Part shown: positions 5,333 to 64,000 of the stretch, in pieces
Numbering within the stretch: position 1 is the stretch's first letter
Layout: every line of letters begins with the position of its first letter
Made by a program: the position numbers and the translations under genes
Notes under the pieces: generated by a model
What the model saw: only the letters and a program-made list of their open reading frames with translations
Told to the model about the DNA's origin: nothing
Database searches by the model: none
Assembly: GCA_963699755.1 (NCBI GenBank)
Contig: CAVOVB010000001.1
Coordinates: 384,001-448,000, forward strand
DNA: 64,000 nucleotides
Source of the DNA: an uncultured delta proteobacterium
Lineage (GTDB): Bacteria > Myxococcota_A > Polyangia > Polyangiales > Houyiibacteriaceae
Direction: 5' to 3'

Positions 5333-5533
5333 CGAACGGTGGGGCTTTCGCGCCCTCCACAGAGGTCAGTTTGGGTACTTGATGAACGGCGTTCTGGGCT
5401 CGGCAACGCGGTCTTCGACGAACGGGTGCGCGGCAGCGACGTCCTCGGGATTTTCGATTCGATGGGTGACGTCTGGAGCTCCGATCTCCAGAAAGCCGCG
5501 TTCGAATCGTAGGTGATGCTAGCTCGTTGAGCG

Positions 5534-5627
5534 CATCGCGAATTCAAGCGCTCTGTCCGCGCGGGACGCCGGATGGCACAACCAGCCAGTACCGCGCAAT
5601 TCGATGGACCCAATCGGTTAAGAGAGC
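5534..5627 (+). repeat. Dispersed oriIS/xrs-like repeat, copy A
   Basis: CATCGCGAATTCAAGCGC ... CAG-TACCGCGCAATTCG ... CCCAATCGGTTAAGAGAGC. Confidence 0.65.
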
Positions 5628-6759: not shown

Positions 6760-7026
6760 GAGCTTGCCCCGCCCAGCTTGTTCATCGCATTCCAAATCGA
6801 ATCGGGCTGATTCGGAATCGTCCCTACGCCACGGCCACGAGCCCGGCCGCATTTTCCTTCCGCCACCGTGATCGTGTCCGCGTGCACATCCGATTCCACG
6901 CACGTCCAGCTTGTTGCATGGCTCGACACGACCGACGCCCTTCGCATGTAGCTCTGCGCTACGGTCTTTTCCGATTCGGAGCGTACACTCCGGTCTGCGA
7001 TCGGAGTCGGTCGCTACATCCTGACT
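6760..7026 (-). mobile_element. IS110-family (IS1111 group) left-end remnant with 5' transposase fragment
   Basis: Near-identical to ~48470-48725; DVHADTITVA...GTIPNQPDSI; subterminal IR GGTCGCTACAT 7009-7019; CT core 7025-7026. Confidence 0.85.
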
Positions 7027-7073
7027 AGTACCGCGAAATTCGGCACTCCGCATGAGCCCATGGTCTAAGAGAC
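7025..7073 (+). repeat. Dispersed repeat copy B (distal half, cut at CT by IS1111)
   Basis: CTAG-TACCGCGAAATTCGGCACTCCGCATGAGCCCATGGTCTAAGAG. Confidence 0.75.
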
Positions 7074-8451: not shown

Positions 8452-8596
8452 ATGGGTGCACATCACAAAGCCGTAGGAATCATCACGCTCTGCGTCATTG
8501 TGCTGCTGCCGGGCAAACTATCCGCGCAAGATGAGGGCATCCAGTCGGAGACGCTGCGGGTCGGTGTGGTCGAGTTAGAGCGGTTCGCGATGAAGG
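8452..8596 (+). pseudogene. 5' end of solute-binding-protein-like gene cut by IS3
   Basis: Signal peptide then TLRVGVVELERFAMK; stops at the IS3 left end. Confidence 0.45.
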
Positions 8597-9840: not shown

Positions 9841-9873
9841 CAGCGCGCGAGATTACAGGGCCCAGGCGCTTCG

Positions 9874-14087: not shown

Positions 14088-14189
14088 CCTAGCAGAAGCA
14101 AAGGCCCTGTCGGCACGGTGGCTGGCACGACACAATATCTGGCTACCGCGCAATTCGGCCCTCCGCATGAGCCTGACCGGCTAAGAGGC
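14088..14189 (+). repeat. Dispersed repeat copy C
   Basis: CCTAGCAGAAGCAAAGGCCC ... GCACGACACAA-TATCTGGC-TACCGCGCAATTCGGCCCTCCGCATGAGCCTGACCGGCTAAGAGG. Confidence 0.75.
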
Positions 14190-19209: not shown

Positions 19210-19988
19210 CAGAACATCAGATTGGCCAGATCCTGCAAGGCTTCCAACTGCGTACGATCATCGGTGATCGGTTGTACGACCGCCGCGTTGCAGGCAACTC
19301 GGGGCGCGACCCCGCTCGCGATCAGCTTTCCGGCCGTCACGAGAAGTCGAGTTGAGACCGTCTCGGCGAGCTGGAGCTCCTCCATGGTGCGTACCTTGCT
19401 CGCAAACTCCACGAGTCGCTTCGCCGTGCCGTTCTCCAGCTCGGCTTCGTGCGCCACGATTTCGGTTTCGACTTTGGCTTCAGGATAGGAGAACCGGTGC
19501 ACCACGAAGCGCTGCCGGGTGGACGGCCGGAGCTCTTTGAAGCCACGCGCATAGCCCGGATTGAAGCTAGCGACGACCATGAACGTGTCGGGCGCAATCA
19601 GGGTTTCGTCCAGCCGGTCGATGTAGAGCTCGCGTCGATGGTCGGTCAGCGAATGAAGGACCACGATGACGTCTTCACGCGCCTCGATGATCTCGTCGAG
19701 GTAGAGAATGGCGCCCGCTCGCACCGCTCGGGTCACGGGGCCATCCTGCCAAATCGTCTCGGCGCCCCTGATCAAAAAACGCCCAACCAGATCGATCGAC
19801 GAGGTTTCGTCGTGGCAGGCCACTGTAATCAGGGGCAAGTCGAGTTGCGCCGCCATCGCCTCGACGAACCGCGTCTTGCCGCAGCCGGTGGGTCCGGCGA
19901 GCAAGAGCGGTAGCCTTTGCCGATGGGCGTGCTCGAACAGCTCGACCTCTCGGCCGACCGAGCGATACCAGGGTGGGGTCCCGCTCAT
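19209..19988 (-). CDS. norQ: NorQ/CbbQ AAA+ ATPase
   Basis: GPTGCGKTRFVE Walker A; YLDEIIEAREDV; ASFNPGY; LRPSTRQRF; STRLL. Confidence 0.95.
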   Translation of the reverse strand: MSGTPPWYRSVGREVELFEHAHRQRLPLLLAGPTGCGKTRFVEAMAAQLDLPLITVACHDETSSIDLVGRFLIRGAETIWQDGPVTRAVRAGAILYLDEIIEAREDVIVVLHSLTDHRRELYIDRLDETLIAPDTFMVVASFNPGYARGFKELRPSTRQRFVVHRFSYPEAKVETEIVAHEAELENGTAKRLVEFASKVRTMEELQLAETVSTRLLVTAGKLIASGVAPRVACNAAVVQPITDDRTQLEALQDLANLMF

Positions 19989-21352
19989 TGCGCCGGAGCC
20001 ACTGCCCTGGTGCCCGTGGGAATCGGCTCCTCAACGTCACCTACGGGCCAGCCATGGCGAATGAAGTTGTAAATGAATGCGAGGATGCCCGACGTGAAGA
20101 GCGTCGCCGCAAGGATGAGCCCGATGAAATGGACCTGCAGCTCCCGCTGAACGTCGAGGAACTCCATCCCCGCGCGACGCTCTAGGTAGACCTGGGCGAC
20201 GCCGGCAATGCCGAACGCAACCGTCATGGCGGTCATGCCGATGTTGGTCGACCAAAACGCATAGATCGCGCTCGGCGTATCGAAGAGCTTGCGACCGGTT
20301 AGTTGCGGCATCGCGTAGCTGATGATCGCCAGGACTAACATCGCGTAAGCGCCCCAAAAAGCCATGTGACCGTGCATCGCGGTCACCAGAGTGCCATGCG
20401 TGTACAGGTTCACCTGCGGAAGTGTATGTGCAATGCCGAGGAAGCCAGCTCCGACAAACGACATGACACAGGTACCCACCGTCCAGAACAAAGCGATTCG
20501 ATTCGGATGGTTTCGACCGCCCTTTCGCGCGAGCGCGAGGCCGTAGATCGCCATGCCCAAGAAGGCGAGCGGCTCGAGCGCGCTGAAGATGCCGCCGATC
20601 CAGAGCCAGTAGTTCGGCGTGCCGATGAAGTAGTAGTGGTGGCCCGTGCCGAGTATGCCGGACAGGAACGTGAAGCCGACGATGACATAGAGCCACTTCT
20701 CGACGATCTCGCGGTCGACGCCGGTGAGCCGGATCAACAGATACGCGAGAATGCCGCCCATGATGAGCTCCCAGACGCCCTCGACCCAGAGGTGGACGAC
20801 CCACCAGCGCCAGAACGCATCGTGTGTCTGATGATCGGTCGGGATCATGCCCGGCAGGTAGAGGACTGCTGCCATCAGGAGGCCGAAGAAGAGCACGATC
20901 GAGGTCGTGGTCATCTTGGGAGCCTTCCAAATCGTCATGCCAATGTTGGCGACGAACAAGAGCACGTCGACGACGACGAGGTAGTCGAGAGGACGCGGAA
21001 TTTCGAGGAACTTGCGCCCTTCCCACCAGTTGAAGTGGAAACCGAAGATCGCCGTGACGCCGACAATCACGAACGCAATCAATTGTACGTACGCGAGCTT
21101 GGGCCAGTAGAGAGGCCGCTCACATTCATCCGGAATGATGTAATACGCGGCGCCCATGAAGCCCGCCAAGAGCCACATCACCAAAAGGTTGTTGTGCGAC
21201 GCGCGCGCGACGTTGAAGGGCACCCAGGGATGCAGCCCGTCCAAGCCGACGTGCGCAAACGCCATGATGAACCCGTACACCAGCTGCAGGCCCAGCAAGA
21301 GCATGCAGGTCGCGAAAAACCAGTACGCTACTTTTTGTGATTCGTACTTCAT
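19985..21352 (-). CDS. norB: cNOR large subunit NorB
   Basis: RWWVVHLWVEGVWE, GTGHHYY, MHGHMAFWGAY, GRKFLE. Confidence 0.95.
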   Translation of the reverse strand: MKYESQKVAYWFFATCMLLLGLQLVYGFIMAFAHVGLDGLHPWVPFNVARASHNNLLVMWLLAGFMGAAYYIIPDECERPLYWPKLAYVQLIAFVIVGVTAIFGFHFNWWEGRKFLEIPRPLDYLVVVDVLLFVANIGMTIWKAPKMTTTSIVLFFGLLMAAVLYLPGMIPTDHQTHDAFWRWWVVHLWVEGVWELIMGGILAYLLIRLTGVDREIVEKWLYVIVGFTFLSGILGTGHHYYFIGTPNYWLWIGGIFSALEPLAFLGMAIYGLALARKGGRNHPNRIALFWTVGTCVMSFVGAGFLGIAHTLPQVNLYTHGTLVTAMHGHMAFWGAYAMLVLAIISYAMPQLTGRKLFDTPSAIYAFWSTNIGMTAMTVAFGIAGVAQVYLERRAGMEFLDVQRELQVHFIGLILAATLFTSGILAFIYNFIRHGWPVGDVEEPIPTGTRAVAPAQ

Positions 21353-22044
21353 AGCCCGCCCTCGCGTTGCTTGGAGAGAAAGATGACCACTTCATTGCGT
21401 TGCTGCTCGGTGAGCCCGAGCGTCGGCATGGTGGTGCCGGGCTTCACGGCCTGGGGGTCGGTGATCCACCTCATCAGGTAGCCTCGATCGAAGCGGTCAC
21501 CCACGAAGTCGAGTGCCGGTCCAATGGCGCCGCCAACCCCGCCCAGGGAGTGGCACGCAGTGCAAACCTGAGAAAAGATCTCCGGTCGCTCGCCGCCAGG
21601 GATCGGAATGGGCGCCGCGCCCGCCAAACCGATCGTGGGTTTCGGAGGAAAGCCGTTGAGGTCCATTCGGCCGATCCACTCGAAGAATGCGTTCATGTCG
21701 TCGATCTGGGCTTCGCTGAAGTCGTACTTCACCATCCGACGCTGCCCGGGATAGACCGCCTCGGGGTCCCGGAGCATCTGAGCGATGAAGGCTGGCCCGC
21801 GACGCTCGTAGACACGCGTCAGCTCGGGCGCGTAGTACGCCCCCTCGCCGAGTAGCGTGTGACAGCCCATGCAGTTGTTGTCCTCCCAGAGCTGCTTGCC
21901 TCGTGCGACCGATTCGGTCAGCTCGCTCGAGTTGGTCTGAGCTGGGATGCGTTGGAACGTGTCGACCGTGAGCCAAATGAAAACCGCACTGAAAAGTAAC
22001 GTTCCAGACAAAAAGAACGCGCGCGCCGCAGACTTCGACAGCAT
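21349..22044 (-). CDS. norC: cNOR small subunit NorC with extra C-terminal cytochrome c domain
   Basis: LSKSAAR...CMGCHTLLGEGAYYAPEL plus second CTACH...PGTTMP; GGAGG RBS. Confidence 0.92.
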   Translation of the reverse strand: MLSKSAARAFFLSGTLLFSAVFIWLTVDTFQRIPAQTNSSELTESVARGKQLWEDNNCMGCHTLLGEGAYYAPELTRVYERRGPAFIAQMLRDPEAVYPGQRRMVKYDFSEAQIDDMNAFFEWIGRMDLNGFPPKPTIGLAGAAPIPIPGGERPEIFSQVCTACHSLGGVGGAIGPALDFVGDRFDRGYLMRWITDPQAVKPGTTMPTLGLTEQQRNEVVIFLSKQREGGL

Positions 22045-24921: not shown

Positions 24922-24967
24922 TGGTGGGCCATCCTGGACTCGAATCAGGAGCCAATGGGTTAAGAAA
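24922..24967 (-). other. Degenerate tRNA 3' half (probably Lys), att-like scar
   Basis: Reverse complement TTCTTAACCCATTGGCTCCTGATTCGAGTCCAGGATGGCCCACCA: anticodon arm, T-loop, CCA. Confidence 0.6.
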
Positions 24968-25130: not shown

Positions 25131-25235
25131 AGGCGCTCTCCCGACACACGGGACCTTTCGGTGAGCCCGATTGCACAGAACTAGATGTTAGGTCGCGTGG
25201 GGCGCGAAACTGAAAGGGCGTTGGTTCTTCCTAGG
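25131..25235 (-). repeat. Dispersed repeat copy D (inverted)
   Basis: Plus strand ATTGCACAGAA-CTAGATG-TTAGGTCGCGT...GAAAGGGCGTTGGTTCTTCCTAGG. Confidence 0.75.
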
Positions 25236-29076: not shown

Positions 29077-29115
29077 AGCCTCTTAGCTCATCGGGCTCAT
29101 GCTGAGAGAGCGCCT
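29077..29115 (-). repeat. Dispersed repeat copy E (tail only, inverted)
   Basis: Reverse complement CATGAGCCCGATGAGCTAAGAGG. Confidence 0.55.
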
Positions 29116-30038: not shown

Positions 30039-30085
30039 GCTTTCTCCATAGCCGATCGAATCCGTCAAACAAAACACGGCTGGTC

Positions 30086-30160
30086 ATAGCGAATTCAAAG
30101 GCCCTGTCTGCGCTGTGAGTCACGCGACCTAGCATCTAGAACCGCGAAATTCAGCTCACG
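30086..30160 (+). repeat. Dispersed repeat copy F (tail replaced by RAYT flank)
   Basis: CATAGCGAATTCAAAGGCCC ... ACGCGACCTAG-CATCTAG-AACCGCGAAATTCAGC. Confidence 0.75.
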
Positions 30161-30169
30161 GACCGCCGC

Positions 30170-30420
30170 GGAGATCCGACCCACGTTGCCCGACACGAAA
30201 CCGTCGCCACGAAGCCGCCAAGCCCCTCGGAGATCCCGCGGAGATCCCGGAGATCCGACCCACGTTGCCCGGAGATCCCGGAGATCCGACCCACCTTGCC
30301 CGAAACGCAGGGAGCTTTGAGGGATTTGGCTGTGATCTCGTGAAGTGGCGCCCGCCGGCGGCCGCGCACGAAACCGTCGCCACGAAGCCGCCAAGCCCCT
30401 GAAATCACGAGATCCCGGCT
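30170..30420 (+). repeat. Repeat array left of RAYT1
   Basis: GGAGATCCGACCCAC(G/C)TTGCCC x3 (30170, 30249, 30280), GGAGATCCC units, 34-bp direct repeat at 30194 and 30367. Confidence 0.9.
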
Positions 30421-31368: not shown

Positions 31369-31525
31369 CGTACGAAAACCTGGCTGAGGATTTGGCGGCT
31401 GCCCTAGGGAGCAGAAGCGCAGGGGTGTATGGCGAGGGGCCGATTCGCTGCAGAGACGCCGCGAGAAGTCGGCCTTGGGCGATGAAATCGATGGCGCTGG
31501 CTGCCTTCATCGGGACGATTGCACT

Positions 31526-31780
31526 GATCGCACGCTTACGGGCGGTGCTCGACGAGCTCCGTGTGGCTTTGCATCACCGCCAACGTCGGTTGGATCTTTG
31601 TGCATCACCGCCAACGTCGGTTGGATCTTTGATCGCACGCTTACGGGCGGTGCTCGACGAGCTCCGTGTGGCTTTGCATCACCGCCAACGTCGGTTGGAT
31701 CTTTGCATCACCGCCAACGTCGGTTGGATCTTTGATCTGGGTTGGATCTTTGGATCTTTTTTTTGTTGGTTGGATCTTTG
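31526..31780 (+). repeat. Repeat array right of RAYT1
   Basis: GCATCACCGCCAACGTCGGTTGGATCTTT x4 within a ~105-bp tandem duplication, plus TTGGATCTTT echoes. Confidence 0.9.
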
Positions 31781-33559: not shown

Positions 33560-34070
33560 CCGCAGCACGGTCATCGCATCGGGCGCGGCGGCGTGCCTCA
33601 CGGCGGCAAGCAGTCTCTCCCGTACGCTTCGTCCGCTCCATCGAGGATATTCGAAAGCGTGATTCCACCGAAGGTTCCGGGCCGTTCGCTCTCGAGGAAG
33701 CTCGCCGCGTCCGCATGCACGAGGCGAACCTCTCGGGCCTCAGGAGGCGGCGGCTCGACCGAGAGCTCGCCGAGAAGGAGTGAACGCGCGTACGGGTTGC
33801 TGCGGTTTGGATGGAGAGCGAAGCAGCGTTCCATCCGAGCGCGCATCGCCGAGCCTAGGCGCTTCGGGAGTAAGTCGAGCAGCCGCGACGGCCACCAGCC
33901 TGCTAACGGCGCGAAGAATCGCATGAAGTCCATGATGCGCTCGGCCCGCCCACGGAAACCGGGGTCGCCCGCGAATCGACGCTCTCCGTACGTGAGCTGC
34001 ACCGGATTGATGTCGATGGCCACCACCTCGTGCTCGGGCGCGAGCCTCATCGCCTCTTGGCCCATCAGGC
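33560..34070 (-). pseudogene. DUF3419/BtaA-like SAM-dependent transferase fragment
   Basis: VVAIDINPVQL...NPYAR...VHADAASFLE...ITLSNILD; no proper start. Confidence 0.5.
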
Positions 34071-34211
34071 TCAAGGTGAGAGCCGGTAGGCGTTTCGGAG
34101 CTTCTGACTCTTTCTTAGATCCAAACGGAGGTGTCGCGCGTCCCCTTCGGCGAGAACGGACTGTCGACAAGCGCGACCGTCCTGCGTAATGCAAAGGCCG
34201 GAGGAGCAACG

Positions 34212-35636: not shown

Positions 35637-35761
35637 GTCATCGAAGAGTTCTGGCACCCGGACAGTTTCAGAATCGCCAGAGCGCCAGATCTCTGTAGTT
35701 TCGATTGCGGAAAGGAACGCGTTTGTAGCGGCTATCTTCGCCCATGCGGCGACGTGGGGCT

Positions 35762-35798
35762 GATAGTCGACACAAACGCTCTTTCCGGTTCACGTCCC
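35762..35798 (+). repeat. Dispersed repeat copy G (oriIS half)
   Basis: GATAGTCGACACAAACGCTCTTTCCGGTTCACGTCCC matches 46292-46308 joined to 47791-47810. Confidence 0.75.
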
Positions 35799-35861: not shown

Positions 35862-36167
35862 TCAGAAGCGCTCCGGCCGTAGCACCTGCACGTCGCCGAC
35901 GCTCAGCACACCAACGTGACGGTCGAGGAGTCGGTACAGGTCCTGGAGGGCTTTGTCGATTCTCTCGACGTCGCCAATCGCGATGACGACGACCATTTCC
36001 TGAGTGGTGGAGAGGTCGCCTTCGCTACGCCAGTGCGTGCTGCCGCCGAAGCCCGCCATCGCGGGCAGCACCGTGTATCCCGTGAGCTCGGCGTCCTCGA
36101 GGATGTTGCATGCCCGCGTGAGCGCCATTCGCTCGACGATCAGCTCGAGTCTGCGTTTGTCGTGCAT
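35862..36167 (-). CDS. sbtB: SbtB-like PII-family regulator
   Basis: KRRLELIVE...TGYTVL...GFGGS; directly downstream of sbtA. Confidence 0.8.
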   Translation of the reverse strand: MHDKRRLELIVERMALTRACNILEDAELTGYTVLPAMAGFGGSTHWRSEGDLSTTQEMVVVIAIGDVERIDKALQDLYRLLDRHVGVLSVGDVQVLRPERF

Positions 36168-36176
36168 CGCGTCCTC

Positions 36177-37160
36177 CTAGCCTGTCACCCACTGCGCCGC
36201 GAGGATGTAGAGAGGTATCCCGACCGTGAGATTGAAGGGAAACGTAACACCCAGCGACAGGGTGAGGTAGATGTACGGCCGCGCCTCGGGAAGCGCGAGC
36301 CTCATCGCTGCCGGTACCGCGATGTACGACGACGACGCGGCCAGCGTGATGAAGAGGGCGGCGTCGCCCGTTGAAATCGGGAGCAACGCGCAGACGAGGG
36401 TCGCTATGGCACCCGAGATGAGCGGCATGTAAAGCCCGAACGCGACGGTCGTGAGCCCGAGCATCTTGTAGCCCTTCCGAAGCCCGCGTCCTGCAGCGAG
36501 GCCCATGTCGAGGAGGAAGAGGCAGAGCACCCCCTGGAGTGGAGTGACGAAAAACGGCTCGACCTTCGCCATGCCCTGGGTTCCCGTCACCCACCCGATG
36601 ATGAGGGAGCCGATCAGAGTGACGACGGATGCATTGAGGGCGACCTCGCGAAAGAGCTCCTGGGGACCGCCACCGGGCTCGTCTTCGCCGCGGGTTCGCT
36701 CGCGGCGAACGAGCAGCAGGGCCGTCATGATCGCGGGCGTTTCCATCAACGCCGCGGCGGCCACGAGAAAGCCGGAGCTCTCGACGCCAGCAAGTGATAC
36801 GGCCTGCGTCGCGGCGACGAACGTGACGATGGAAATCGAGCCGTAGTGGGCGGCGGTCGCGGCGGCGTCCATGCGGCCAAGACGAGTCGTCAGGCGGAGC
36901 AGCGCGTAGGCCACCAGAGGGATCAGGAAGGAGAGGGCGATGGCGGAACCCATCACGGCCAACACCTCGGCGCTCAGCCCGCTCTTCGACATCTCGACGC
37001 CGCCCTTGATGCCGATGGCCATCATCAGGTAGATGGCGATTCCCTTGGCGAAGGCTTCGGGAATGGCCATGTCCGAACGCGCGAGCGCGGCCGTGAGACC
37101 GAGGACGAAAAAAAGGACCACCGGGGAGAGGATGGTCGCGAGGGCAAGCTCGAGCGCCAT
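36177..37160 (-). CDS. sbtA: SbtA (DUF897) sodium-dependent bicarbonate transporter
   Basis: YLMMAIGIKGG, AAHYGSISIVTF, METPAI, FLLDMG, SYIAVPAAMR, SLGVTFPFN. Confidence 0.92.
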   Translation of the reverse strand: MALELALATILSPVVLFFVLGLTAALARSDMAIPEAFAKGIAIYLMMAIGIKGGVEMSKSGLSAEVLAVMGSAIALSFLIPLVAYALLRLTTRLGRMDAAATAAHYGSISIVTFVAATQAVSLAGVESSGFLVAAAALMETPAIMTALLLVRRERTRGEDEPGGGPQELFREVALNASVVTLIGSLIIGWVTGTQGMAKVEPFFVTPLQGVLCLFLLDMGLAAGRGLRKGYKMLGLTTVAFGLYMPLISGAIATLVCALLPISTGDAALFITLAASSSYIAVPAAMRLALPEARPYIYLTLSLGVTFPFNLTVGIPLYILAAQWVTG

Positions 37161-38479: not shown

Positions 38480-38546
38480 GACATCCAGCTCCATTAGCAC
38501 AGCGAAGCTGGGCGTTTGCGACGAGCCCGACGGGCTAAGAGAGCGC
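38480..38546 (+). repeat. Dispersed repeat copy H (divergent; tail clear)
   Basis: GAGCCCGACGGGCTAAGAGAGCG. Confidence 0.5.
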
Positions 38547-45263: not shown

Positions 45264-46007
45264 ATGAACCCCCGCTCGCCGAGCTTTCTGCTCTCTTCCA
45301 TCGTGGTTCACGGTGCGTTTTTCTCCGCGTTGGCGGCCACGCCCACCGAGGTGGAACCGAGCCCCATGAGCCGTGCGATCGAGTTCATCACGATCACCGA
45401 GCATGGTGGCGGACGCCTCGGAAACGACGAAAGCATCGGAGACGCGGCGAAGGTTCCCGAGACGCCACCCGAACGGCTCTTCCGAAAGGTGGAGCCGAAA
45501 CCGAAACCCTCACGTCCGGTCGCTGAGACCGCCCCGAAACCCGAGGCGCCGTCGGTTCCGAACGAGCCCATCGCGTCCGGCGCGCAAAGCGAGGGAGTCA
45601 CGGAGAATGCGACCGCTGCAAACGGCGATGCCTCGGCAATGGGCTCGGCGGGCACCGACCCGGAAGCGACGAAGTCGGGTGTGGGCAGTGGCGCGGAAGG
45701 CGTCGATCGACGGTCCGCGCTGCGTGCGTGGCTCAAGGAGGTCCAGCGCGAGGTCAACAAGATCGCCACGCGCAACTATCCACGCTCGGCCCTCCGCATG
45801 CGACTGGAAGGCAGGTTGCGCCTCGGCGTGACGATCGGCCCCGACGGAAAGATTCTCGGGGTCCGAGTTCTTTCGTCTTCGGGTCACAGCGTGCTCGACG
45901 AGTCGGCCACGGCCTCCGTCAACGCGCTCCACATTCCGCCGCCGCCCGAGGCCCTCGGCTGGCGCGCACGCGAGATCTCACTTCCAGTTCGGTACGCGCT
46001 GGATTGA
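45264..46007 (+). CDS. tonB: Energy transducer TonB
   Basis: SIVVHG TM anchor, Pro/Lys/Glu linker, YPRSA...EG, SSGHSVLD. Confidence 0.88.
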   Translation: MNPRSPSFLLSSIVVHGAFFSALAATPTEVEPSPMSRAIEFITITEHGGGRLGNDESIGDAAKVPETPPERLFRKVEPKPKPSRPVAETAPKPEAPSVPNEPIASGAQSEGVTENATAANGDASAMGSAGTDPEATKSGVGSGAEGVDRRSALRAWLKEVQREVNKIATRNYPRSALRMRLEGRLRLGVTIGPDGKILGVRVLSSSGHSVLDESATASVNALHIPPPPEALGWRAREISLPVRYALD

Positions 46008-46308
46008 ATCGAGCTGAAACGAGTCCCGGCTCGAGATCGAACCCGCGGCCAACACGAGGACCCGATCCCCGTCAATCGTTCGTGACGCCTGAGTCCGGGA
46101 TGGCTGCTTCGCTGATACCGGCGCCTCGTGCCTCGGGCTCCCCGGCGGTCGCGTCCCCGGAATCCTTGCATCCAGGACCGCCCTCGATCTTCACGGCATC
46201 GTGCTCGCAGGTGATCTTGTCCGATTTGGCCCTACTGGTGATGAGAAGGCGCATCCGACCGAGTAGCCCCCCTGCTCCCGCCGAGTCAGAGCATAGTCGA
46301 CACAAACG

Positions 46309-47780
46309 CAATGCCGTTCACTTAGGAGTCCCGCGGCGGTTTCCCTTTGCGGTTTGAAGGATACTGACTGGCTTTTCGCTTGAACGCTCTAGGGTAGCGG
46401 CGCGAGGAGCGCCGCTCTGGCAGGAGGAAAAGCGACAGTTGTTGCCGCAAGCGTTTGAGGTGCGTGGGAATGGCTCCCGGCTGAGCCACTGCGCACCAGA
46501 GAAACTCGTCACGAATGAATCGGTGGGACGCGATGAAGCTGATCCTCAGAGGGCTTACGTTCGCTTCCTTTGCGACCTGCTCCATCTCGCGACGCACGAG
46601 GTTGTACGCTAGAAGGACGCCCCACAATTCCTGCCGCACTCCCTGCGGAGTTTGACTTCGCATCGGGACGTTGCGCTCGAGCATGTCGGTCTTGAGCTCA
46701 CCGAAGCCCATCTCGATTTCCCATCGCTCGTGATACAGAGCGATGATCTCTTTTGCCGGATACTTCGTTGGGTCCAGCAACGAGGTCAGCAGCATTTGCT
46801 CCTTTCCACCTTTCATCCGATAGCGGATACGACGCACCCTCCAATGCAAGGGCAGCGTCGGCTCCTTTGCTCGTGTGGCCGCACATATCGTAAACTCCAC
46901 GAGCTCATCGGTGTGGGTGGTGCGCGTGACCACTCTGCCCGTTGTATCCGAGCGTGCACGAACCAGAAAATGGCGATTGGCGCCACCTTGGTGCAACGGG
47001 TGCAACACGTTGGAGGCCTGAAACCCGCGGTCCACAATCGTCAGAGAATCGTCGGGAATCTCATCCCAAAGTTGCCGCGCATAGGTGTGCTCGCCCTGCT
47101 TGCAAGGTCCAAAGGCGACCGCAGCAAGCATCTGTGAACGAAGCGCCATCAACGCAACCGCTCGCATCACGGGATATCCGCTGCCTTCTGGTGCGAGGCG
47201 ACCGACAATGAGTCCGAACTCGTGTCGGTTCGCCTCTGAATCGGGAACACGCAACGACGTTCCATCCACTGCATACAACGCCAGACCACGCCACCGACCC
47301 CGATCGGCGCTTTGATGAGCCCACTTGTTCGCGCACTGCTCAAACAGCCACCGCACAGGCTCTTGTCCCAGCCGCGCTCGAGCCTGCGAAATGGCGCTCG
47401 GAGCCACCGTTACGTGACCCGAGCCGGGCAACGCCAGGTCGAGCTTGTTCACCACGTCCGTGATCGACCGGTCCTTGAACAGCGCCATGCCGAGCACCAA
47501 CCACACCACTTGCTCCGCCGGTAGCCGTCTGCGTCTCAGCGTCGCCGTGCCTGTCGCACGCAGCGCCTCTTCAATCCACTCTCGCGGGAGGTGCTTGCGA
47601 AATGCATCGAGCTCCGGCGGTCCACCTAGACTCGCACAACCAGTGACAATCTCCTGCAACATGGGCCAACCCCCCTCGGTGCTGGCCAGTCTGATCTCAT
47701 CGGCGACCGATTAACAGAACCTTTCCACGCCGACTTCCCAAAGCATTTCGATCACTTCCATCACTAACTGATCGGCATTG
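46309..47780 (-). mobile_element. IS4-family element, apparently intact
   Basis: IRs CAATGCCGTTCACTTAG and CTAACTGATCGGCATTG; 10-bp target duplication GACACAAACG (46299-46308, 47781-47790). Confidence 0.95.
46322..47662 (-). CDS. IS4-family DDE transposase
   Basis: [31 protein letters not shown] (YREK). Confidence 0.95.
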
Positions 47781-47824
47781 GACACAAACGCCCTTTCCGG
47801 TTCGCGTCCCTGGCGACATACCAT

Positions 47825-48725
47825 CTGATATGTAGCGACCTGTCTACTGAGAAGATGGGGTTTGCTTTGTTTCCGTTGTGGTTGGTTGAACGGCTCAAAG
47901 AAGCTGGCGAACAAAGCGACGGTTGACCAATCTGATATTCGTGGATCGACCCGAAGGCCGCCGACATGGTCATCATCCGTCGGGAGCTCGCTCAGACTAG
48001 TGGCGCGAGTTGGGCACGGCCGTGCCTATCGCATAGATGTTTCGAGGCTTGTCCTTCCCGTGGGGATGCTTGCCAGCTTCTTTGAACCGTTCAACAAGGA
48101 GGCCCTGCGTGTTCATCTCGGCTTCGCGCTGCCGCCCGACGGCCCACACAAACCCGGCGAGCTCTCGACTCATCGCGGTCACCGCGGTAAGCATCGCCAC
48201 CCCGCGAAGGCTTTGCAGGGCCAGGACCAGCTCTTGCATCCGTGGCGGCGCCTGCTCGACCGCGCGGTCGAGCGCCTTGTCGAGCCGCGCCACGCGCTCG
48301 GTGGCATGCTCGACTTCGTTCTTGTAGTCCACAAACGTCTCCTCTTGCGCCGTATGGTCGAACACCTGCGAATCGAGCCAACGCCAATGCGCCTGGCCCC
48401 AGGCTTGGCTCTGGATATCTCGACGGCGGCCCAGGCGAAGCAAGAATTCCCCAGCCGGTTCGCCCTGCCGAGCTTTTTCATCGCCTTGCGAATCGAGTCG
48501 GGCTGATTCGGAATCGTCCCTACCCCGCGACCACGACCACGGCCGCCTCCTTCGGCCACCGCCACCGTGATCGTGTCCGCGTGCACATCCAGTCCCACGT
48601 ACGTCCAGCTTGCTGTATGGTTCGACATGACCGACTCCCTTCGTATGTAGCTCTGCGCTACGGTCTTTTCCGATTCGCGGCGTAAACTACGGTCTGCGAT
48701 CGGAGTCGGTCGCTACATCTTGACT
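47825..48725 (-). mobile_element. IS1111-group IS110 element with internally deleted transposase and intact ends
   Basis: YVGLDVHADTI; subterminal IRs ATGTAGCGACC 47830-47840 and GGTCGCTACAT 48708-48718; CT at both junctions. Confidence 0.88.
47885..48095 (-). ncRNA. Predicted seekRNA/bridge RNA in the IS1111 3' non-coding end
   Basis: Closed by ~24-bp inverted repeat; contains AACATCTA and ACTAG (target match) and ATATCAG (donor match). Confidence 0.65.
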
Positions 48726-48743
48726 AGTACCGCGAAATTCGGC

Positions 48744-49791
48744 TGTAAGCCCAATATAGAAATGTCGGGTTTGTGCCAGATTCAAATGTCGGGGTTACCC
48801 GCCCCCGATGGACTCAGGGCTCGTCGTCATGAGCCGGCGCGAGATCGAGCGAGCGCATGTGATGCGCGCGATTGAGGAGCGCCGGCTGACCCAGAAACAA
48901 GCCGCTACGCAGCTGCGGTTGAGCGTGCGTCAGATCGAAGAAGGCATTCGGAAGACTCGTGCGCAGCGTTGCAAACGCATTCAGCAGCCGCGTCACCGTC
49001 GCGATCGCACGGGCGAGCTTGTGCAGATCGACGGCTCGGACCACCACTGGTTTGAGAACCGCGGTCCGAAATGCGTGCTCCTAGTCTACGTCGACGACGC
49101 GACGGGCAAGCTCATGGCGCTCCGGATGTGTGAGTCGGCGTTGAGCTACTTTCACGCGACGCGCGGCTATCTAGAGCGTCACGGCAAGCCGGTGGCCTTT
49201 TACAGGGACAAAGCGGGGGTGTTCCGCGTAATGCCAAGAGTCCCAGGGCCGGCGACGGCTTCACGCAATTTGGCCGCGCCATGACCGACCTCAATATCGA
49301 CGTGATTTGCGCCAATACGCCCGCGGCCAAAGGCCGCGTGGAGCGCGCACACCAAAGGCTTCAAGACCGGCTCGTTAAGGAGCTCCGGCTGCGCGGCATC
49401 TGCACGATGGACGACGCCAATCGGTACTTGCCCGAGTTCATCGAGGACTACAATCGGCGCTTCGCACGGGCCGTCCGAAAACGCCAACAACAAGAAGAAC
49501 AGGAGCTCGTCCGCTCCGCCAAGAGCAAGCGCGAGCAGCGCATCGTGCGCGACCGCTTCGCGGACCGGCTGCCGCCTCCGGGACCCTGAGCCGACCGGCC
49601 CGCGCGAGGCCTACCGACGCCCTCTCAAGCCATCCGCCCTCTTGCCCCCACGGCGACGTTCCCCCAGACGCACCGACGTGTTCGCCCTGCAGAAACCGCC
49701 GTCAGACGCAGCTTCCGGCCGGCCCGCACCCGGCTCCTCCCCGACATTTCAATCTTGGAGAACTAGCCGACGCCTCAGTTTGGTTTTGACA
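48744..49791 (+). mobile_element. IS1202-family (ISNCY) element, degraded
   Basis: TGT...ACA ends, repeated AAATGTCGG/CCGACATTT; GELVQIDGSDHHWFE, VDDATG, AKGRVER; deletions and frameshift. Confidence 0.8.
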
Positions 49792-49829
49792 TGGCGCTCA
49801 CCTTGAGCCCGATGGGCTAAGAGGCGGGT

Positions 49830-50004
49830 CGTCGATCGCGAGCAGCCGAGCTCCTCGTTTCCAAGCTTCGGCGACGCCGCCGGCGGGTTCGAGGTCTTCA
49901 TGTCCGAGGGGTATAGCCATGTGGACGTCGTGTCCGCCGAAGACGACGAGACCAACAACTTCGTCGCGCCGCTACTCGCGTTCATCGAGCGCTACCTGGA
50001 GTAG
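49830..50004 (+). pseudogene. C-terminal fragment of hydrolase-like gene
   Basis: GGFEVFMSEGYSHVDVVSAED...IERYLE*, begins right after the repeat tail. Confidence 0.35.
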
Positions 50005-50012
50005 TTGCAGCG

Positions 50013-50822
50013 TCAGCCCCAAAGCTCGTAGAGCGAGATTACGATCTCGAGGAGGATGAGCATGACGATGTACCACTCGACTCGGAGACTCTGGCTGTGC
50101 AGCCGGAGATCGAGGAGCACGCGGGCGGCGCTCGACATGACGTCGAGCTTGCGTTCGAGAGCTCGGTGCCGCTCGACGAGCTCGAGCTCGTCGCTGAGCC
50201 GCGCGTAGAGCGAGTCCAACTCCGGGTGCTCCCAGAGGACCTCGGGCTTCTCGGCCGCTTCGACTCTACCTACCGTACGAGTGAGGGCGAGAAGGGTACT
50301 GCCGATGCGTTTGGCGAGTGCGCGTGCGCTGCGCGGGGTGCGTCCCTCGCGTTCCAGGTCAAGGGCCAGAGGCTCCACCTCCTCAAAGGCAGACGCCGCT
50401 GTCTGCTCGTAGTGAATCAGTGCGACACTCTTCGCGAGGGCGTCGGCAATCACTTGCATCCGGTGGATGTCGATGGTCGGACAGACCACGACCCCATCGC
50501 GTACGCGATCGCCATCGATCTTCTGCGTCGTGAGCCGGAGCCCGTCGCTGACCGGCTCCTCGAATCGCTCGCGCAAGAGCGCGTCGAGCTCGGCCTGAAA
50601 TGCTCGCTGTTCCACGGGCATCACGTTGATGAACACGGCTACCCCGTACCGAAACAGCACGCAGAGCCCATCGCGACCCGCCTCGACCACCAGTGGCGTC
50701 GAGGCCAGACGGTGTGCTTCGAGCTGACGCGTGTCGATTCGCTGAGCGAGGTACACAGCGTCGACCGCAATGTGACGACCTTCGAGGGCCGTCCGGCGCA
50801 ATGCGTCGATACGCTTGACCAT
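50013..50822 (-). CDS. RMD1/DUF155 family protein
   Basis: VLFRYGVAVF, LAKSVAL..YE, EKPEVLWE, ELELVER, RVEWYIV. Confidence 0.88.
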   Translation of the reverse strand: MVKRIDALRRTALEGRHIAVDAVYLAQRIDTRQLEAHRLASTPLVVEAGRDGLCVLFRYGVAVFINVMPVEQRAFQAELDALLRERFEEPVSDGLRLTTQKIDGDRVRDGVVVCPTIDIHRMQVIADALAKSVALIHYEQTAASAFEEVEPLALDLEREGRTPRSARALAKRIGSTLLALTRTVGRVEAAEKPEVLWEHPELDSLYARLSDELELVERHRALERKLDVMSSAARVLLDLRLHSQSLRVEWYIVMLILLEIVISLYELWG

Positions 50823-57183: not shown

Positions 57184-58059
57184 AGCCGGGAGCTCGCCCG
57201 ATTCCGACGTTTCTCGAACGGTTTCGCGGACAGGTATCGATGAGAACTGGACTTCCCCCGCCCCTGTAGACACCTCGAAGCCAAACGCGAGGTGCTTAAG
57301 CTTCGAGCCGAGCTTCGGCGCGCGCAAGAAGAGCGGGACATATTAAAAAAGCCGCTGTGTACTTTGCGCGAGAGCCCGAGCAAAGTACGCATTCATCGAA
57401 GCGCACCGCAAGGAGCACCGCATCCAGACGATGTGCCGGGTGCTCGGCGTGGCGCGCAGCGGGTTCTACGCCTGGCTTCATCGGCCGCTGTCGGATCGAG
57501 CGCGGCAGGACGGCCGTTTGCTCGAGCTCATTCGCGCCTCGTGGTTTGCGAGCGGGGGTATCTATGGGAGCCCCCGCATGTGGGGCGACCTTCGCGAATC
57601 GGGCGTTCGGTGCAGCAAGAAGCGCATCGCCCGCATCATGAGAGAGCACAAGATCCGGGCCATTCGTGGCTACAAGCGCCCGCGTCACCGCCCTGGGCGT
57701 CCCGCCGCACTCGCACCCAATCGGTTGCAGCAGCAGTTCACGGTGAGCCGTCCCGACGAAGCCTGGGTGACCGACATCACCTACCTCCGCACATGGCAAG
57801 GGTGGCTCTACTTGGCCGTCGTGATCGACCTCCACTCGCGCCGCGTCGTCGGATGGTCGATGAAGTCGTCGCTACACCGCGAGCTCGTACTCGATGCGCT
57901 CTTGATGGCGGTGTGGCAGCGCAAGCCTCGGCAGCACGTCATCGTGCATTCCGATCAAGGCACGCAATACGGCAGCGATGAGTGGCAGCGTTTCTGCCGA
58001 GCGCACCGGCTCACCACGAGCATGAGCCGCCGCGGCAACTGCTACGACTGTGATGATGC

Positions 58060-58290
58060 TTGGACGCCGATCGATCCTCTGGAAAGATCGTCGTGGTCGT
58101 TGCTTCGGGTGATCTGACCCTTGCTATGATCGACCTTGGGTGTCCTGGCGTTGACGTGTCGGTCACCCGCAAGCAGCGGCGTATCCTTACCAGCCAGGCG
58201 GGTCGTGACCTCATAGGAGCCTGAATACTTCGGTCCCATCACAGTCCTGTCCTTCCTCGTCTGACCGGTGAGTTCAACCACTGACCGGAA
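58060..58290 (+). ncRNA. Predicted IS110 bridge RNA
   Basis: Two stem-enclosed loops: TGCTATGA/GGCGTTG (target) and ATAGGAGC/CATCACAG (donor). Confidence 0.75.
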
Positions 58291-58301
58291 GGAATACCTG
58301 C

Positions 58302-59381
58302 ATGCCAAGCGTCTCGCCGAAGCCCACCGAAATCATCGTGGGCGTGGATACACACAAGCACCAACATGTCGCATTCGCGATCGATGGACTGGGCCGCGTC
58401 GCCGCCGAGCCTATCACGATTCCCGCAACGGGGGCCGGCTATGCCCAACTGCTTGCATGGGCCGATGCGCTGGGCACCGTTCACGCCTTTGGGGTGGAGG
58501 GTTGTGGCTCCTACGGAATCGGTCTGGCACGCTTCCTTCGGCGCCATGGTCGTAGTCTGCAAGAGGTCGCTCGCCCTGTTCGCCGAGGGGAGCGTCGAAA
58601 GTCTGGAAAGAGCGACGCGATCGATGCCGAACATGCCGCACGCACCATCCTCACCAGCACAGGAACTGCGACTCCAAAGCTCGCGAACGGTCCTGTGGAG
58701 GCGCTCCGACTCATCAAAATCGCCCGAGATACAGCGGTGAAAGCGCAGTCGATGACCATGATCACGCTCAAGGCCATGGTCGTCACAGCGCCCAGCGGGT
58801 CGCGCGAACGAATCGAGCCGCTCAACAACCACCAGCTCGTCCTGGCATGCTCCGCTCTCGATTCGTCGGAGGCAGTGTCCGACCCCGAAGTCGCCGTCCG
58901 GTACGCACTCGGTGCGCTCGGCCGCCGGTGGCTACAACTCCACGAGGAGATCAAGACGCATACCGCTTATCTCAAGGAGCTCACGCGAGCGTCGGCGCCG
59001 GAGCTGGTCGACACGTTCGGAGTCGGGTTCGACAGCGCAGCCGAGTTTCTCATCGCGGCCGGTGACAATGCCGACCGTATTCGTTCCGAAGCGGCTTTCG
59101 CCAAGCTCTGCGGAGCATGTCCGATCCCCGCAGGGTCGGGCATGACCAACGGTCGTCATCGTTTGAACCGAGGCGGTAATCGCCAAGCCAATGCCTCACT
59201 CTATCGAATCGTCATCGTCCGGATGCGCTGGCATCCCGCCACCATGGCGTACGTCGAACGCCGCACTGCCGAAGGTTTGTCGAAGAAGGAGATCATTCGT
59301 TGCCTCAAGCGTTTCGTCGCTCGGGAGATCTATCGCCTCCTGCCAAGACCAAGTTCTGCGAGTCTGCCAAAAGCCGCCTAG
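58302..59381 (+). CDS. IS110-family DEDD recombinase
   Basis: GVDTHK, GVEGCGSYG, GKSDAIDA, PAGSG, RLNRGGNRQAN. Confidence 0.95.
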   Translation: MPSVSPKPTEIIVGVDTHKHQHVAFAIDGLGRVAAEPITIPATGAGYAQLLAWADALGTVHAFGVEGCGSYGIGLARFLRRHGRSLQEVARPVRRGERRKSGKSDAIDAEHAARTILTSTGTATPKLANGPVEALRLIKIARDTAVKAQSMTMITLKAMVVTAPSGSRERIEPLNNHQLVLACSALDSSEAVSDPEVAVRYALGALGRRWLQLHEEIKTHTAYLKELTRASAPELVDTFGVGFDSAAEFLIAAGDNADRIRSEAAFAKLCGACPIPAGSGMTNGRHRLNRGGNRQANASLYRIVIVRMRWHPATMAYVERRTAEGLSKKEIIRCLKRFVAREIYRLLPRPSSASLPKAA

Positions 59382-59712
59382 CCTCCTTGACATCTATAGG
59401 AGCATCAATGCGGTCGCCGAGTCGTTTTTCAGCAGCTTGAAGAAGGAACGGATTCGAAGGAAAATCTACAGGACCCGGGCCGAAGCCCGGGCCGACGTGT
59501 TTGACTACATCGAGGTCTTCTACAATCGAAAGCGGCGGCACAGCCACATCGGAGACATGAGTCCGGCGGCCTTCGAGGCCGTCCTCAGCAACCCTAGCCG
59601 GGTGTCTACGGAAGCGGGGTAAGTCCAGCAACCCTAGCCGGGTGTCTACGGAAGCGGGGGAAGTCCATTTCGACGCGTATTTGACGCGCACTTGGTGAAG
59701 ACCCTCATGTGC

Positions 59713-61283: not shown

Positions 61284-61531
61284 TTTTCGGCACTTGCTGT
61301 CTCCTGCTGGCGAAAAACACGCTGCCAAAGCTGAGCTCGTTGAACGGCGTTCGGAAATGGGAAGCAGACGAAGGAGATCCGACCGACGTTGACGGAAGCG
61401 AAGGCCGATGGGAGGGCTAAGCACCAAGCCGTCGTGAGCCGACCGGGCACCCGAGTTGCTCGGCGAAAGCCCTCCCAGCCTCGTTGCCGGCGGCGTTAGT
61501 GCTGATTCGGGCGCATATGGGAGAGCTGGCA

Positions 61532-61632
61532 GATAGTCGATATGAACGCCTTTGAGGTTCACGTCCGGCGCGACATGAGATCTAGTACCGCGTAATTCAG
61601 ACTTCCGACTGGGCCCAATCGGCTAAGAGAGC
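61532..61632 (+). repeat. Dispersed repeat copy J (complete, uninterrupted)
   Basis: GATAGTCGATATGAACGCC..GGTTCACGTCCGGCGCGACATGA-GATCTAG-TACCGCGTAATTCAG..GGGCCCAATCGGCTAAGAGAGC. Confidence 0.8.
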
Positions 61633-62474: not shown

Positions 62475-63969
62475 TGTACGTCATCAGAGTATTTCGGAGA
62501 AGAGGGCATGTTTGTTAAGAGACGGTTCGTGGTTTTGACCTAGGCCGCGTTTGCGGCCCGGTACTCCTTTTTGCGACGCTGCATCGTAAGCTGCTTGATC
62601 TTGTCCCGTTCGGATAGGACCCGGTGGCGCCGGCCGTAGTACACGTCGGCCGGCGTGCAGTTGTCGAGCGACTCGTGGTAGCGGCGATGGTTGTAGTAGG
62701 CGACGAAGTCGCGCACCGCTGCCTCCAGCTCCCACGGGAAGTAGTAGTGCTGTAGCTTCACGACGTTCTTCATCGAGCGGTGGTAGCGCTCGATCTTCCC
62801 CTGCGTTTGCGGGTGGTACGGGCGGCCTCGGGTGTGCGTCATGCCCTGCTCCTGCAGGTAGCTCTGCAAGTCCTTCGATACGTAGGCCGGTCCGTTGTCG
62901 CTCAGGGTCTCGGACGATGGCGCACTCGCACGCTCTGTACTCCGGTGAGCGCCAGTGCTTCGTCGAGCGTCTCGGTCACGTCCGTGGTCGCCATCGTCGG
63001 GCCCAGTTTGTAGGCGAGGATGAAGCGCGAGAAGTCATCCATCACCGTCGACAGGTAGTACCAGCCCCAGCCGACGACCCGCAGGTACGTGAAGTCGGTC
63101 TGCCACATCTCGTGTACCCGCTTGGTCGGATGCTTGAAGCGGTCCGACGCGCTCATCAGGACGTACGCCGGGCTCGTGATCAGATCGGCGGCCTTGAGGA
63201 TGCGGTAGACGCTCGATTCGCTCGGGAAATACTGGCGCTCATCGATGAAGTGGCACGCGAGCTCCCGGGCTGAAAGCTCCGTCTTTTTGAGGGCCAAATC
63301 GATCACCTCGGCCCGGACCTTCTCGGGGACTTGGTTCCATCTCGGACGCGGCGGCGGCGTCTTGTCTTGCAGGGCATCGAATCCACCGTCGACATACCGC
63401 TTGTACCGGCTGTAAGAGGTGCTCGATGGGATGCCAGTTGTCGCAGCGTGACCCGTACCGGCAAGTCGGTGCGCTCGGCCATGTCAATCAGCTCCATCTT
63501 CTCGGATGCACTGCGTCTCATGTGCCGTCCTTGTCGCCATGACCCATCAGACTTTTTTTGAGCACACGGTTCTTGAGCGTCATCTCCGCGACGACCTCCT
63601 TGAGCTCACTGTTTTCGGTTCGCAGGTTCTTGACCTCGGTGATCGTCGCCTCCCGCACCGTGTCGCCGCTCAGCTGCTTCTTACCGGCCTCCAGGAAGTC
63701 CTCGCTCCAGCGGTAGTACAGATTCGCGGCGATACCTTCGCGTCGGCACAACTCGGCCACGCTGACCTCACTGCGCAGGCCGTCGAGCACGATCCGGATC
63801 TTTTCTTCCGCAGAAAACCTCCGGCGCGTCTTGCGACGGATGTCACGCACGGCGGCCTCACTCGAAGCGTTTCTCTCTTCTCGGCATGGGACACTCCTCA
63901 GCAGGGCTCTCGCCCTCGGCACAGTGTCTCTTAACTCAGAGCCCTTTTGTCTCCGAGTTCTTCTGACGG
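62475..63969 (-). mobile_element. IS3-family element, full length but frameshifted (sister of 8597-9840)
   Basis: Same orfA/orfB and ends as 8597-9840; orfB broken into several frames. Confidence 0.92.
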
Positions 63970-64000
63970 GCTACAATCTCACTTCACCCCGACGATCGGC

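Follow-up and report, generated by a model that had tools for sequence, protein, structure and literature searches.

Why would three unrelated insertion sequences (IS) come to lie in a single copy of a repeat? The question is raised by a 64,000-nucleotide stretch of DNA (hereafter, the window; contig CAVOVB010000001.1, positions 384,001 to 448,000) from an uncultured delta proteobacterium of the Myxococcota, in which elements of the IS4, IS110 (IS1111-type) and IS1202 families interrupt one such copy. We found that the repeat is a unit of about 105 bp, and that five IS types (IS1202, IS4, IS1111, a second IS110 and an IS91-like element) enter it across the genus, each at its own fixed position. 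In our assessment, the unit is likely an extended dif-like Xer site (xrs), acted on by the host recombinases XerC and XerD and marking the joints between gene cassettes; that XerCD bind the repeat and recombine it is what we infer from comparison of the sequences.

Insertions in the repeat and their fixed positions

The excision in silico of the IS4, IS1111 and IS1202 elements rebuilt one ~105-bp repeat, with junctions that could be read directly, and in this respect the original prediction on this locus was borne out. The reconstruction given there had retained four surplus bases (49792-49795); they represent a 5-bp target duplication in damaged form. With these dropped, the rebuilt unit of 100 nt had 89/100 identities with the copy at C7:15675 and 73 with the intact copy at 61532 of the window, and the alignment scores (170 and 119) were far above the maxima of 54 and 49 obtained from 500 shuffles each. 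Two of the three elements are remnants. The IS1111-type one has internal deletions of ~310 and ~280 nt (~590 nt in total) relative to the full C7 copy, and the IS1202-type one (48744-49791) has TGT/ACA ends and deletions of ~215 and ~320 nt (~535 nt in total). A tRNA-Lys island of ~56 kb contains the triple-hit copy; the tRNA and the integrase of this island are located beyond the window (C1:463714-464645). Double hits were seen repeatedly elsewhere (C7:11011, C3:7776, L154), and therefore the triple hit can be read as the tail of a common process within one unit.

The profile of the repeat was rebuilt without the IS1111 ends, which a first version had included. In this genome (G000, 5.35 Mb, flagged as 9% contaminated) it recovered 59 whole or partial pieces, amounting to ~4.3 kb. 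The pieces are clustered: 95% have another one within 15 kb, against 28% expected. The copies at C1:1586766 and C7:432507 are identical including their flanks, and one of the two was omitted from the statistics. The model used for the genus survey, built from 29 intact copies, matched 24 of 24 genus genomes with 3 to 57 matches each (57 in this genome), so that the word "abundant" in the original prediction is justified; none of 16 genomes of other families was matched. In a wider draw the model matched 18/18 genus genomes and gave single, uninspected hits in 5 of 132 others (four borderline, one with an E value of 4e-10). The exact core pattern had no match in viral contigs, and a plasmid collection was without match to the repeat. 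Sediment-metagenome contigs (4 of 20 listed runs) contained IS-free joints across the centre, with 88% likeness and short sides; most likely they stem from other copies of the repeat, and hence they were not counted as an empty allele of this locus.

The unit consists of two 11-bp arms, one XerD-type (D) and one XerC-type (C), around a centre of 6-8 bp, with flanks of ~40 bp on the left and ~35 bp on the right. Its outer ends are sharp, and the DNA outside them is random (124 left and 152 right ends). No target duplication of the whole unit was found above chance (lengths of 0, 1 and 2 in 43, 16 and 5 of 64 units, against 44, 13 and 6 expected), and no terminal inverted repeat was found; on these two grounds, a miniature inverted-repeat transposable element was rejected.

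The flanks of the IS copies described a landing pad wider than the one originally claimed. IS4 was placed at one left-flank position, in both orientations, by 20 of 22 end matches (7 genomes), the remaining two being two-mismatch matches without an IS4 body; strong target-arm specificity is described in this IS4 subgroup by De Palmenaer et al. On the C side of IS1111, 9 of 12 matches rejoin the C arm at CT, and the other three are without IS context. On its D side, 6 of 10 junctions fall in the repeat and four (L183, L184, L178, L186) join foreign DNA, likewise at CT, which suggests deletions or rearrangements made by IS1111 beside the sites. The element has the features of the IS1111 group (sub-terminal inverted repeats, a downstream non-coding region and a dinucleotide core), and an uncontrolled search of the non-coding region for a guide to the target (seekRNA or bridge RNA) gave only matches of 5-8 nt. 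Targeting of a recombination site is already known in this group, since IS1111 elements insert at attC sites (PMC11187229). In G000, the second IS110 was placed at the left edge by four of five matches that have IS context (9 pattern matches), and it was also seen at a unit of the type C described below. The IS91/ISCR-like element lies at the right edge in all 16 ends found (30 loci, 19 genomes), with both flank types. Nearly all IS ends are thus at one fixed offset, in a family that covers ~4.3 kb of 5.35 Mb, and therefore we attribute these positions to targeting and not to chance.

The core as a dif-like site

The strict canonical dif pattern had no match in G000. With a relaxed score, the top site was C3:687011-687038, between the last rightward and the first leftward FtsK-orienting polar sequence (KOPS) of a polarity switch, and the next-ranked sites were mostly copies of the repeat. 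The KOPS bias was usable for locating dif, and GC skew was uninformative. Across the order, the dif pattern matched 29 of 41 genomes, with a single match in 27, and gave one control match. The position of the C3 site at the KOPS switch, and the occurrence of the pattern once per genome in 27 of the 29 matching genomes, therefore identify this site as dif.

The consensus arms of the repeat agree with the host dif at 7-9 of 11 positions (D arm) and 9 of 11 positions (C arm). In a first set, 118 sites were anchored and 31 were dropped as split or truncated; among the 87 intact ones, centres of 7, 8 and 6 bp occur 58, 27 and 2 times, and in a further set of 75 sites (97 anchored) 56, 16 and 3 times. 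The last three bases of the centre, beside the C arm, are 66-98% conserved, and the XerD side of the centre varies in sequence and length. In general, the arms and the three C-side centre bases are 77-100% conserved at most positions (13 genome labels). As for the proteins, XerD (355 bits, cut-off 330) and FtsK-gamma are encoded in G000, and the best hit for XerC (324) is just below the cut-off of 335.

Besides the common types A and B, a type C unit joins the left flank of the repeat to a near-canonical dif core; the centre is of 6 bp, the right flank is shorter, and the arms agree with dif at 9/11 and 10/11 positions. Type C gave 19 extra matches, distributed over 5 of 55 genomes; three identical units of it were seen in G050, and it occupies the same arrays as the common types. 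The flank motif is present in all 20 type C copies with readable left DNA (21 copies printed, 13 loci examined), and true dif sites at 20 loci are without it. Chimeras were also found: L255 joins a type C core to a type A right flank, and L142 an 8-bp centre to a type C right flank. At L248:2906-2975, L249, L250 and L266, the right ends of a type C and a type A unit are joined head-to-head via a shared GC in one case, and there are short duplications with their end exactly at the type C right terminus.

IS1202 gives a further indication. In one IS1202 subgroup, the left end lies 5 bp from the XerC arm of an xrs and a 5-bp duplication is formed (Siguier et al., bioRxiv 10.1101/2022.12.17.520857; Harmer et al., PMC10132070). 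The assignment of our elements to this subgroup rests on transposase identity and NF033594 score: the full C7 copy encodes 441 aa, with 47-50% identity to copies from Acinetobacter, and most of the latter, at the loci read, lie 5 bp from pdif arms. In G000, three of five IS1202 left ends are at 5 bp from a repeat C arm, one is at 5 bp from the true dif and the fifth belongs to a tandem junction; five of six right ends rejoin the repeat at the same offset. Left ends were readable in 11 of 16 non-Acinetobacter-type IS1202 loci, where the neighbour was the repeat in five, dif in four, another xrs-like site in one and unclear in one, and the gap to the arm was 5 bp bar one 2-bp case. Titled records partly duplicate the sites of the surveyed genomes, and the IS1202 sets were kept separate and not summed. 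Exact 5-bp duplications are present at C11, L053, L054, L055, L061, L063 and L066, and the one of the window copy is damaged. One IS1202 clade thus lands alike at the repeat and at true dif, and we counted this toward the Xer identity of the repeat, together with the near-canonical dif core of type C inside the common left flank, the chimeric halves and the drop of linkage across the centre described below. The proposal that the repeat is probably protein-bound has no more than indirect support, from the IS1202 geometry, which marks XerC arms in the literature; it draws no strength from IS1111, which, being RNA-guided, needs no bound protein.

Further IS1202 loci deserve description. In one of the five cases at the repeat (L054:1400-1435), three extra bases lengthen the centre, a gap of 2 bp separates IS1202 from the C arm, and the distance of IS1202 from the D arm equals that of 7-bp sites; the register of IS1202 may be set from the D arm. 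An IS1202-like left end stands 5 bp after true dif at at least 6 of 20 dif loci (L019-L038), one of them from another family. In a more distant record (L066), IS1202 with its 5-bp duplication adjoins another kind of xrs-like site, whose centre is of 6 bp. IS1202 ends enclose an IS30-family element at C11:76274-77591 and C7:40308-41591 (L048, L014), with a third near-identical copy at C7:17129-18376, and at C7:426660-428759 (L016) two IS1202 ends are joined via a 2-bp spacer, in an element with a 113-aa passenger open reading frame.

Cassette arrays, exchange and rival explanations

Neighbouring sites less than 12 kb apart are mostly co-directed (54/68 and 45/56, 99/124 together), with median gaps of 2.7 and 1.9 kb, and the cargo between them consists of 1-5 ordinary genes in either orientation, on the basis of our own crude gene calls. 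No rule of gene orientation relative to the sites was found (gene ends facing sites, 52/56 and 57/49), and site orientation, judged by eye against replichore direction, had no consistent bias. Fifteen sites have a common D-side flank, which in G000 and G014 encodes a MobP relaxase after a mobC/traJ-like gene; the sites following the relaxase are mostly of type B (8-bp centre). Each of the three islands checked ends at a tRNA and an integrase with a duplicated tRNA end. There are 22 PF00589 matches, and several islands carry phage-type integrases or their remnants. Within arrays, 12-19% of 89 same-array pairs have near-identical halves, against 0.2-0.4% of other pairs, and whole identical units surround unrelated cargo in G014, G011 and G050. 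Furthermore, some units stand back to back, 113 and 135 bp apart, and stutter duplications end at the right terminus of the unit, which hints at a cut there.

We then considered where in the unit exchange could happen, comparing 3,141 cross-genome pairs of the 87 sites. The left flank, the D arm and the centre co-vary (rho 0.18-0.57; p 0.003 by site permutation for this D-side block), and so do the C arm and the right flank (rho 0.14-0.35). The centre and the C arm do not (rho −0.05), and the cross terms are mostly near zero. In the independent set of 75 sites, rho within the D-side block was 0.16-0.52. Pairs with one flank at least 88% alike mostly switch in or near the core. At the 7-bp site of Vibrio phage VGJ, exchange is described as XerC-only, with the junction resolved by replication (PMC5357621; bioRxiv 10.64898/2026.06.12.731946); the centre of the repeat moves with the D side, varies in length on that side and is fixed next to the C arm, which, we infer, fits this route.

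According to this scenario, XerC alone would exchange one strand, on its side of the centre, and the junction would then be resolved by replication, as for the VGJ site. Cassettes would thereby be added, swapped or lost without FtsK, junction migration through the ~40-bp flanks could homogenise neighbouring units (gene conversion), and the cassettes would be carried by mobilisable, tRNA-integrated islands. The IS would converge on the unit by separate routes, IS1202 probably via XerC, IS1111 and the second IS110 via a guide RNA, and IS4 and the IS91-like element by others. Several IS lineages would do so because the unit is conserved, non-coding, redundant and carried on mobile islands.

A number of observations weigh against exchange by XerC in the core of an xrs. 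The linkage blocks are not clean: in the first set the D arm correlates with the distal right flank (R2; rho 0.25), in the independent 75 sites the same blocks appear with leakage (D versus C 0.25, p 0.01; D versus R1 0.13), and linkage within the C-side block is weak (0.08-0.14) among the 135 best-conserved sites. The extension on the flank side is often more diverged than the flank itself, and one pair breaks outside the unit, sharing it whole. Of 174 cross-genome alignment ends, only 14 have a site within 70 bp in each of the two genomes, and several of these are IS-borne; sites cover 2% of the DNA in this comparison. In 94 alignments of fetched loci, no cassette with both ends intact was present in two neighbourhoods, and the breakpoints found were one-sided. 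The commonest arm variants (types A and B) deviate from dif, including at inner C-arm bases, and in Acinetobacter a site degenerate at these bases is inactive, and directly repeated xrs pairs failed to excise in tests (PMC11705084). Finally, recombination in the core leaves the origin of new sharp-ended units unexplained.

The origin of the units would be explained, together with their likeness, by duplication of the whole unit on capture. The 105-bp unit would then be a small mobile or self-duplicating element with an internal xrs, copied at DNA capture by an enzyme acting at its ends, and Xer exchange would be secondary. We consider this unlikely, even if the sharp outer ends with random DNA beyond, the enrichment of near-identical halves in same-array pairs, the runs of identical units with unrelated cargo, the back-to-back units, the right-terminus stutters, the head-to-head fusion of right ends and the use of the right terminus by the IS91-like element are all in line with it. 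Indeed, the unit has neither target duplication above chance nor terminal inverted repeats, no enzyme was tied to its ends (the IS91-like transposase is present in 19 of 55 genomes, yet the unit is in every genus genome searched), and gene conversion likewise makes neighbours alike. A combined reading appears similarly doubtful to us: an integron-like capture system without its own recombinase, where an activity cutting at both outer ends duplicates the ~105-bp unit on either side of freshly captured DNA, as if it were a CRISPR repeat, and host XerC shuffles the cassettes by single-strand exchange in classes A, B and C set by the centre. If this were true, the five IS types would read out the protein and cut-site map of the machine.

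The units could also be inert relics of xrs from plasmids or from integrative mobile elements exploiting Xer (IMEX), kept as safe havens for IS and by gene conversion. Halves and decayed copies are numerous (59 pieces in G000), and IS in the centre and arms are tolerated; but the conservation of the arms and of the C-side centre bases, and the recent turnover implied by identical units with different cargo and by chimeric halves, make this improbable. Slightly less probable still is that the sites are only dif-like and are the targets of a tyrosine recombinase encoded by the islands. The phage-type integrases and remnants of several islands, the 2-4 differences from dif in the arms of types A and B, and flanks that could be arm-type binding sites are compatible with this. 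However, those integrases sit at tRNA genes and the duplicated tRNA ends account for their sites, no integron integrase exceeded the cut-off, type C has dif arms, and one IS1202 clade inserts in the same way at the repeat and at dif. To a repetitive extragenic palindromic (REP)-like or structured-RNA element (terminator or small RNA) targeted by IS we assign a very small probability, since it is largely refuted by the dif-like core and by type C. REPs are known as targets of several IS families and so are a precedent for such a repeat (PMC1525189), the right flank has a short palindrome, and a REP-transposase-like gene is beside one C7 site. Yet the repeat has no Rfam match, no consensus fold in 29 copies (one strand folded), no terminator call in its pieces and no orientation bias relative to genes, and it is confined to islands, as its clustering indicates. 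On balance, we maintain the extended dif-like Xer site as the preferred reading.

The features of the window are reported in the following table, where positions refer to the window.

Table. Parts of the triple-hit unit and other pieces of the repeat family in the window
Feature	Position	Strand	Remark
Degenerate full copy	5532..5627	+	
Second IS1111 end (~6766-7022) joined at CT to repeat right half (7023-7073)	6766..7073	+	
Full copy with 8-bp centre	14088..14188	+	
Copy of tRNA-Lys 3' end	24924..24944	-	Distal boundary of the ~56-kb island
Full degenerate copy	25135..25235	-	Directly inside the island boundary
Right flank alone	29078..29108	-	
Left flank and core	30084..30155	+	Tandem stutters in place of right flank
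Right flank alone	34053..34085	-	
Left flank alone	35760..35797	+	
Right flank alone	38509..38544	+	
Start of left (XerD-side) flank	46289..46308	+	Includes first IS4 10-bp duplication, 46299-46308
Intact IS4-family element	46309..47780	-	Transposase 46322-47662 (446 aa); terminal inverted repeats 16-17 bp
Second IS4 duplication copy (47781-47790) and remainder of left flank	47781..47810	+	
XerD-type 11-bp arm	47811..47821	+	Similarity to dif at C3:687011-687038
First 5 bases of 7-bp central region	47822..47826	+	Ends with CT core (47825-26) used by IS1111
Internally deleted IS1111-type element (IS110 family)	47827..48723	-	Sub-terminal inverted repeats; downstream non-coding region
Second CT core (48724-25) and final two bases of central region	48724..48727	+	
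XerC-type 11-bp arm	48728..48738	+	9/11 identical to C arm of the genome's dif
5 bp separating C arm from IS1202	48739..48743	+	Left target-duplication copy
Internally deleted IS1202-family element (ISAba32/ISAjo2-like)	48744..49791	+	Left end faces C arm; open reading frame pieces 48808-49284, 49281-49589
Damaged right copy of 5-bp duplication	49792..49795	+	One base lost
Right (XerC-side) flank	49796..49825	+	
Intact copy of repeat	61529..61632	+	

After the insertion, the sub-terminal repeat of IS1111 (window 48710-48727) falls in exactly the register of the XerD arm, which it matches at 7 of 8 inner bases; such a match is equalled at 113 of 63,989 window positions, and the C7 and G023 copies have the same IS1111 end. 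On the C side, an xrs-like site may thus be restored by the element itself. The tandem stutters that replace the right flank of one unit (window 30170-30400) reappear 1.2 kb further on, at 31525-31734.

Among the cargo of the window there are a nitric-oxide-reductase-like cluster at 17260-22044 (cytochrome c, COX1-type, CbbQ/NirQ, VWA), an Sbt bicarbonate transporter with a PII-like gene at 35862-37160 and DabA at 636-3182. Two inverted IS3-type copies (8591-9842 and 62475-63975), as well as another IS3-type piece with an unrelated IS110 gene (57431-59665), are not at the repeat. Rfam and tRNA scans of the window returned nothing, and a promoter scan of 46000-50100 gave none. Elsewhere in this genome, at C1:1566866-1568149, two integrase genes flank one tRNA-Leu, facing it, with a site array beyond each.

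Comparison with known systems

The dif (pdif) modules of Acinetobacter and its chromosomal dif module islands (Wang et al., PMC12907356; Blanchais et al., PMC11705084) share with the present arrays the rows of dif-like sites bounding one to several genes, the lack of an own recombinase and the targeting by IS1202-type elements. The Acinetobacter sites are 28 bp long, with 6-bp centres, and alternate between C/D and D/C, and no accessory sequences were found for them. Here, instead, the units are of ~105 bp with flanks on both sides, have mostly 7-8-bp centres and are co-directed in 99/124 neighbours, and the arrays belong to tRNA-anchored relaxase islands of a Myxococcota genus; type C, though its centre is of 6 bp, is flanked as well. 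An Acinetobacter-type dif module was rejected, as neither the alternating orientation nor the bare 28-bp form is found here. The IS1202 subgroup of ISAba32 and ISAjo2 (bioRxiv 10.1101/2022.12.17.520857, PMC10132070) shares the TGT/ACA ends, the ~440-aa transposase, the 5-bp geometry and duplication, the targeting of dif and other xrs, and the formation of tandems; the text consulted on it names neither this host phylum nor extended targets with 7-8-bp centres.

The attachment sites of IMEX, especially attP of VGJ, have in common with the repeat the 7-bp centre and the mismatch on the XerD side, and their XerC-only exchange is thought to be resolved by replication, with arrays arising by successive integration (PMC5357621, bioRxiv 10.64898/2026.06.12.731946). 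IMEX use the single terminus dif, whereas here the arrays are far from dif in several islands, the cargo is of 1-5 ordinary genes and dif is unflanked. The sites cer and psi resemble the repeat in that the centre is longer (8 bp in cer) and conserved DNA adjoins the core, and their XerC-first exchange is like the one proposed here (PMC5357621). However, cer is a single-copy site whose accessory DNA (~180 bp) binds PepA and ArgR (PMC5357621), and the repeat is multicopy, with flanks of ~40 and ~35 bp; ArgR had no match in G000 (PepA was not searched for). A cer/psi-type site was rejected, given that the repeat has no ~180-bp accessory region and the genome no ArgR match.

Integron arrays, with the IS1111 elements of attC (PMC11187229), are comparable for the direct-repeat arrays, the lineage-specific repeats and the IS1111 aimed at the recombination site. 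Unlike integrons, the present arrays have no integron integrase (0 matches above the TIGR02249 cut-off in G000), no attC fold and multi-gene cargo in either orientation. An integron with IntI and attC was rejected for want of an integrase, of consensus pairs on the strand folded and of co-oriented genes.

How Xer-bounded cassettes move and are first built is a question that stands even for Acinetobacter, where cassettes carry resistance genes. This genus supplies hundreds of natural sites, with three sub-types, chimeras, co-directed arrays and sharp ends, and it offers testable predictions on XerC-only exchange, a three-base homology rule and the role of the flanks. The left ends of IS1202 can locate xrs sites where dif is unannotated, and the IS4, IS91-like and two IS110-family elements, with single-position specificity for the 105-bp unit, are candidates for the study of target choice. 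In the literature we found neither this repeat, nor extended co-directed xrs arrays in Myxococcota, nor targeting of xrs by IS4, IS91 or IS1111, although hosts of this kind may be listed in the supplements to the two papers on IS1202. The targeting of xrs by IS1202 and the chromosomal dif-module islands are already published; the extended ~105-bp unit and the map of five IS types on it were not met with in the literature searched.

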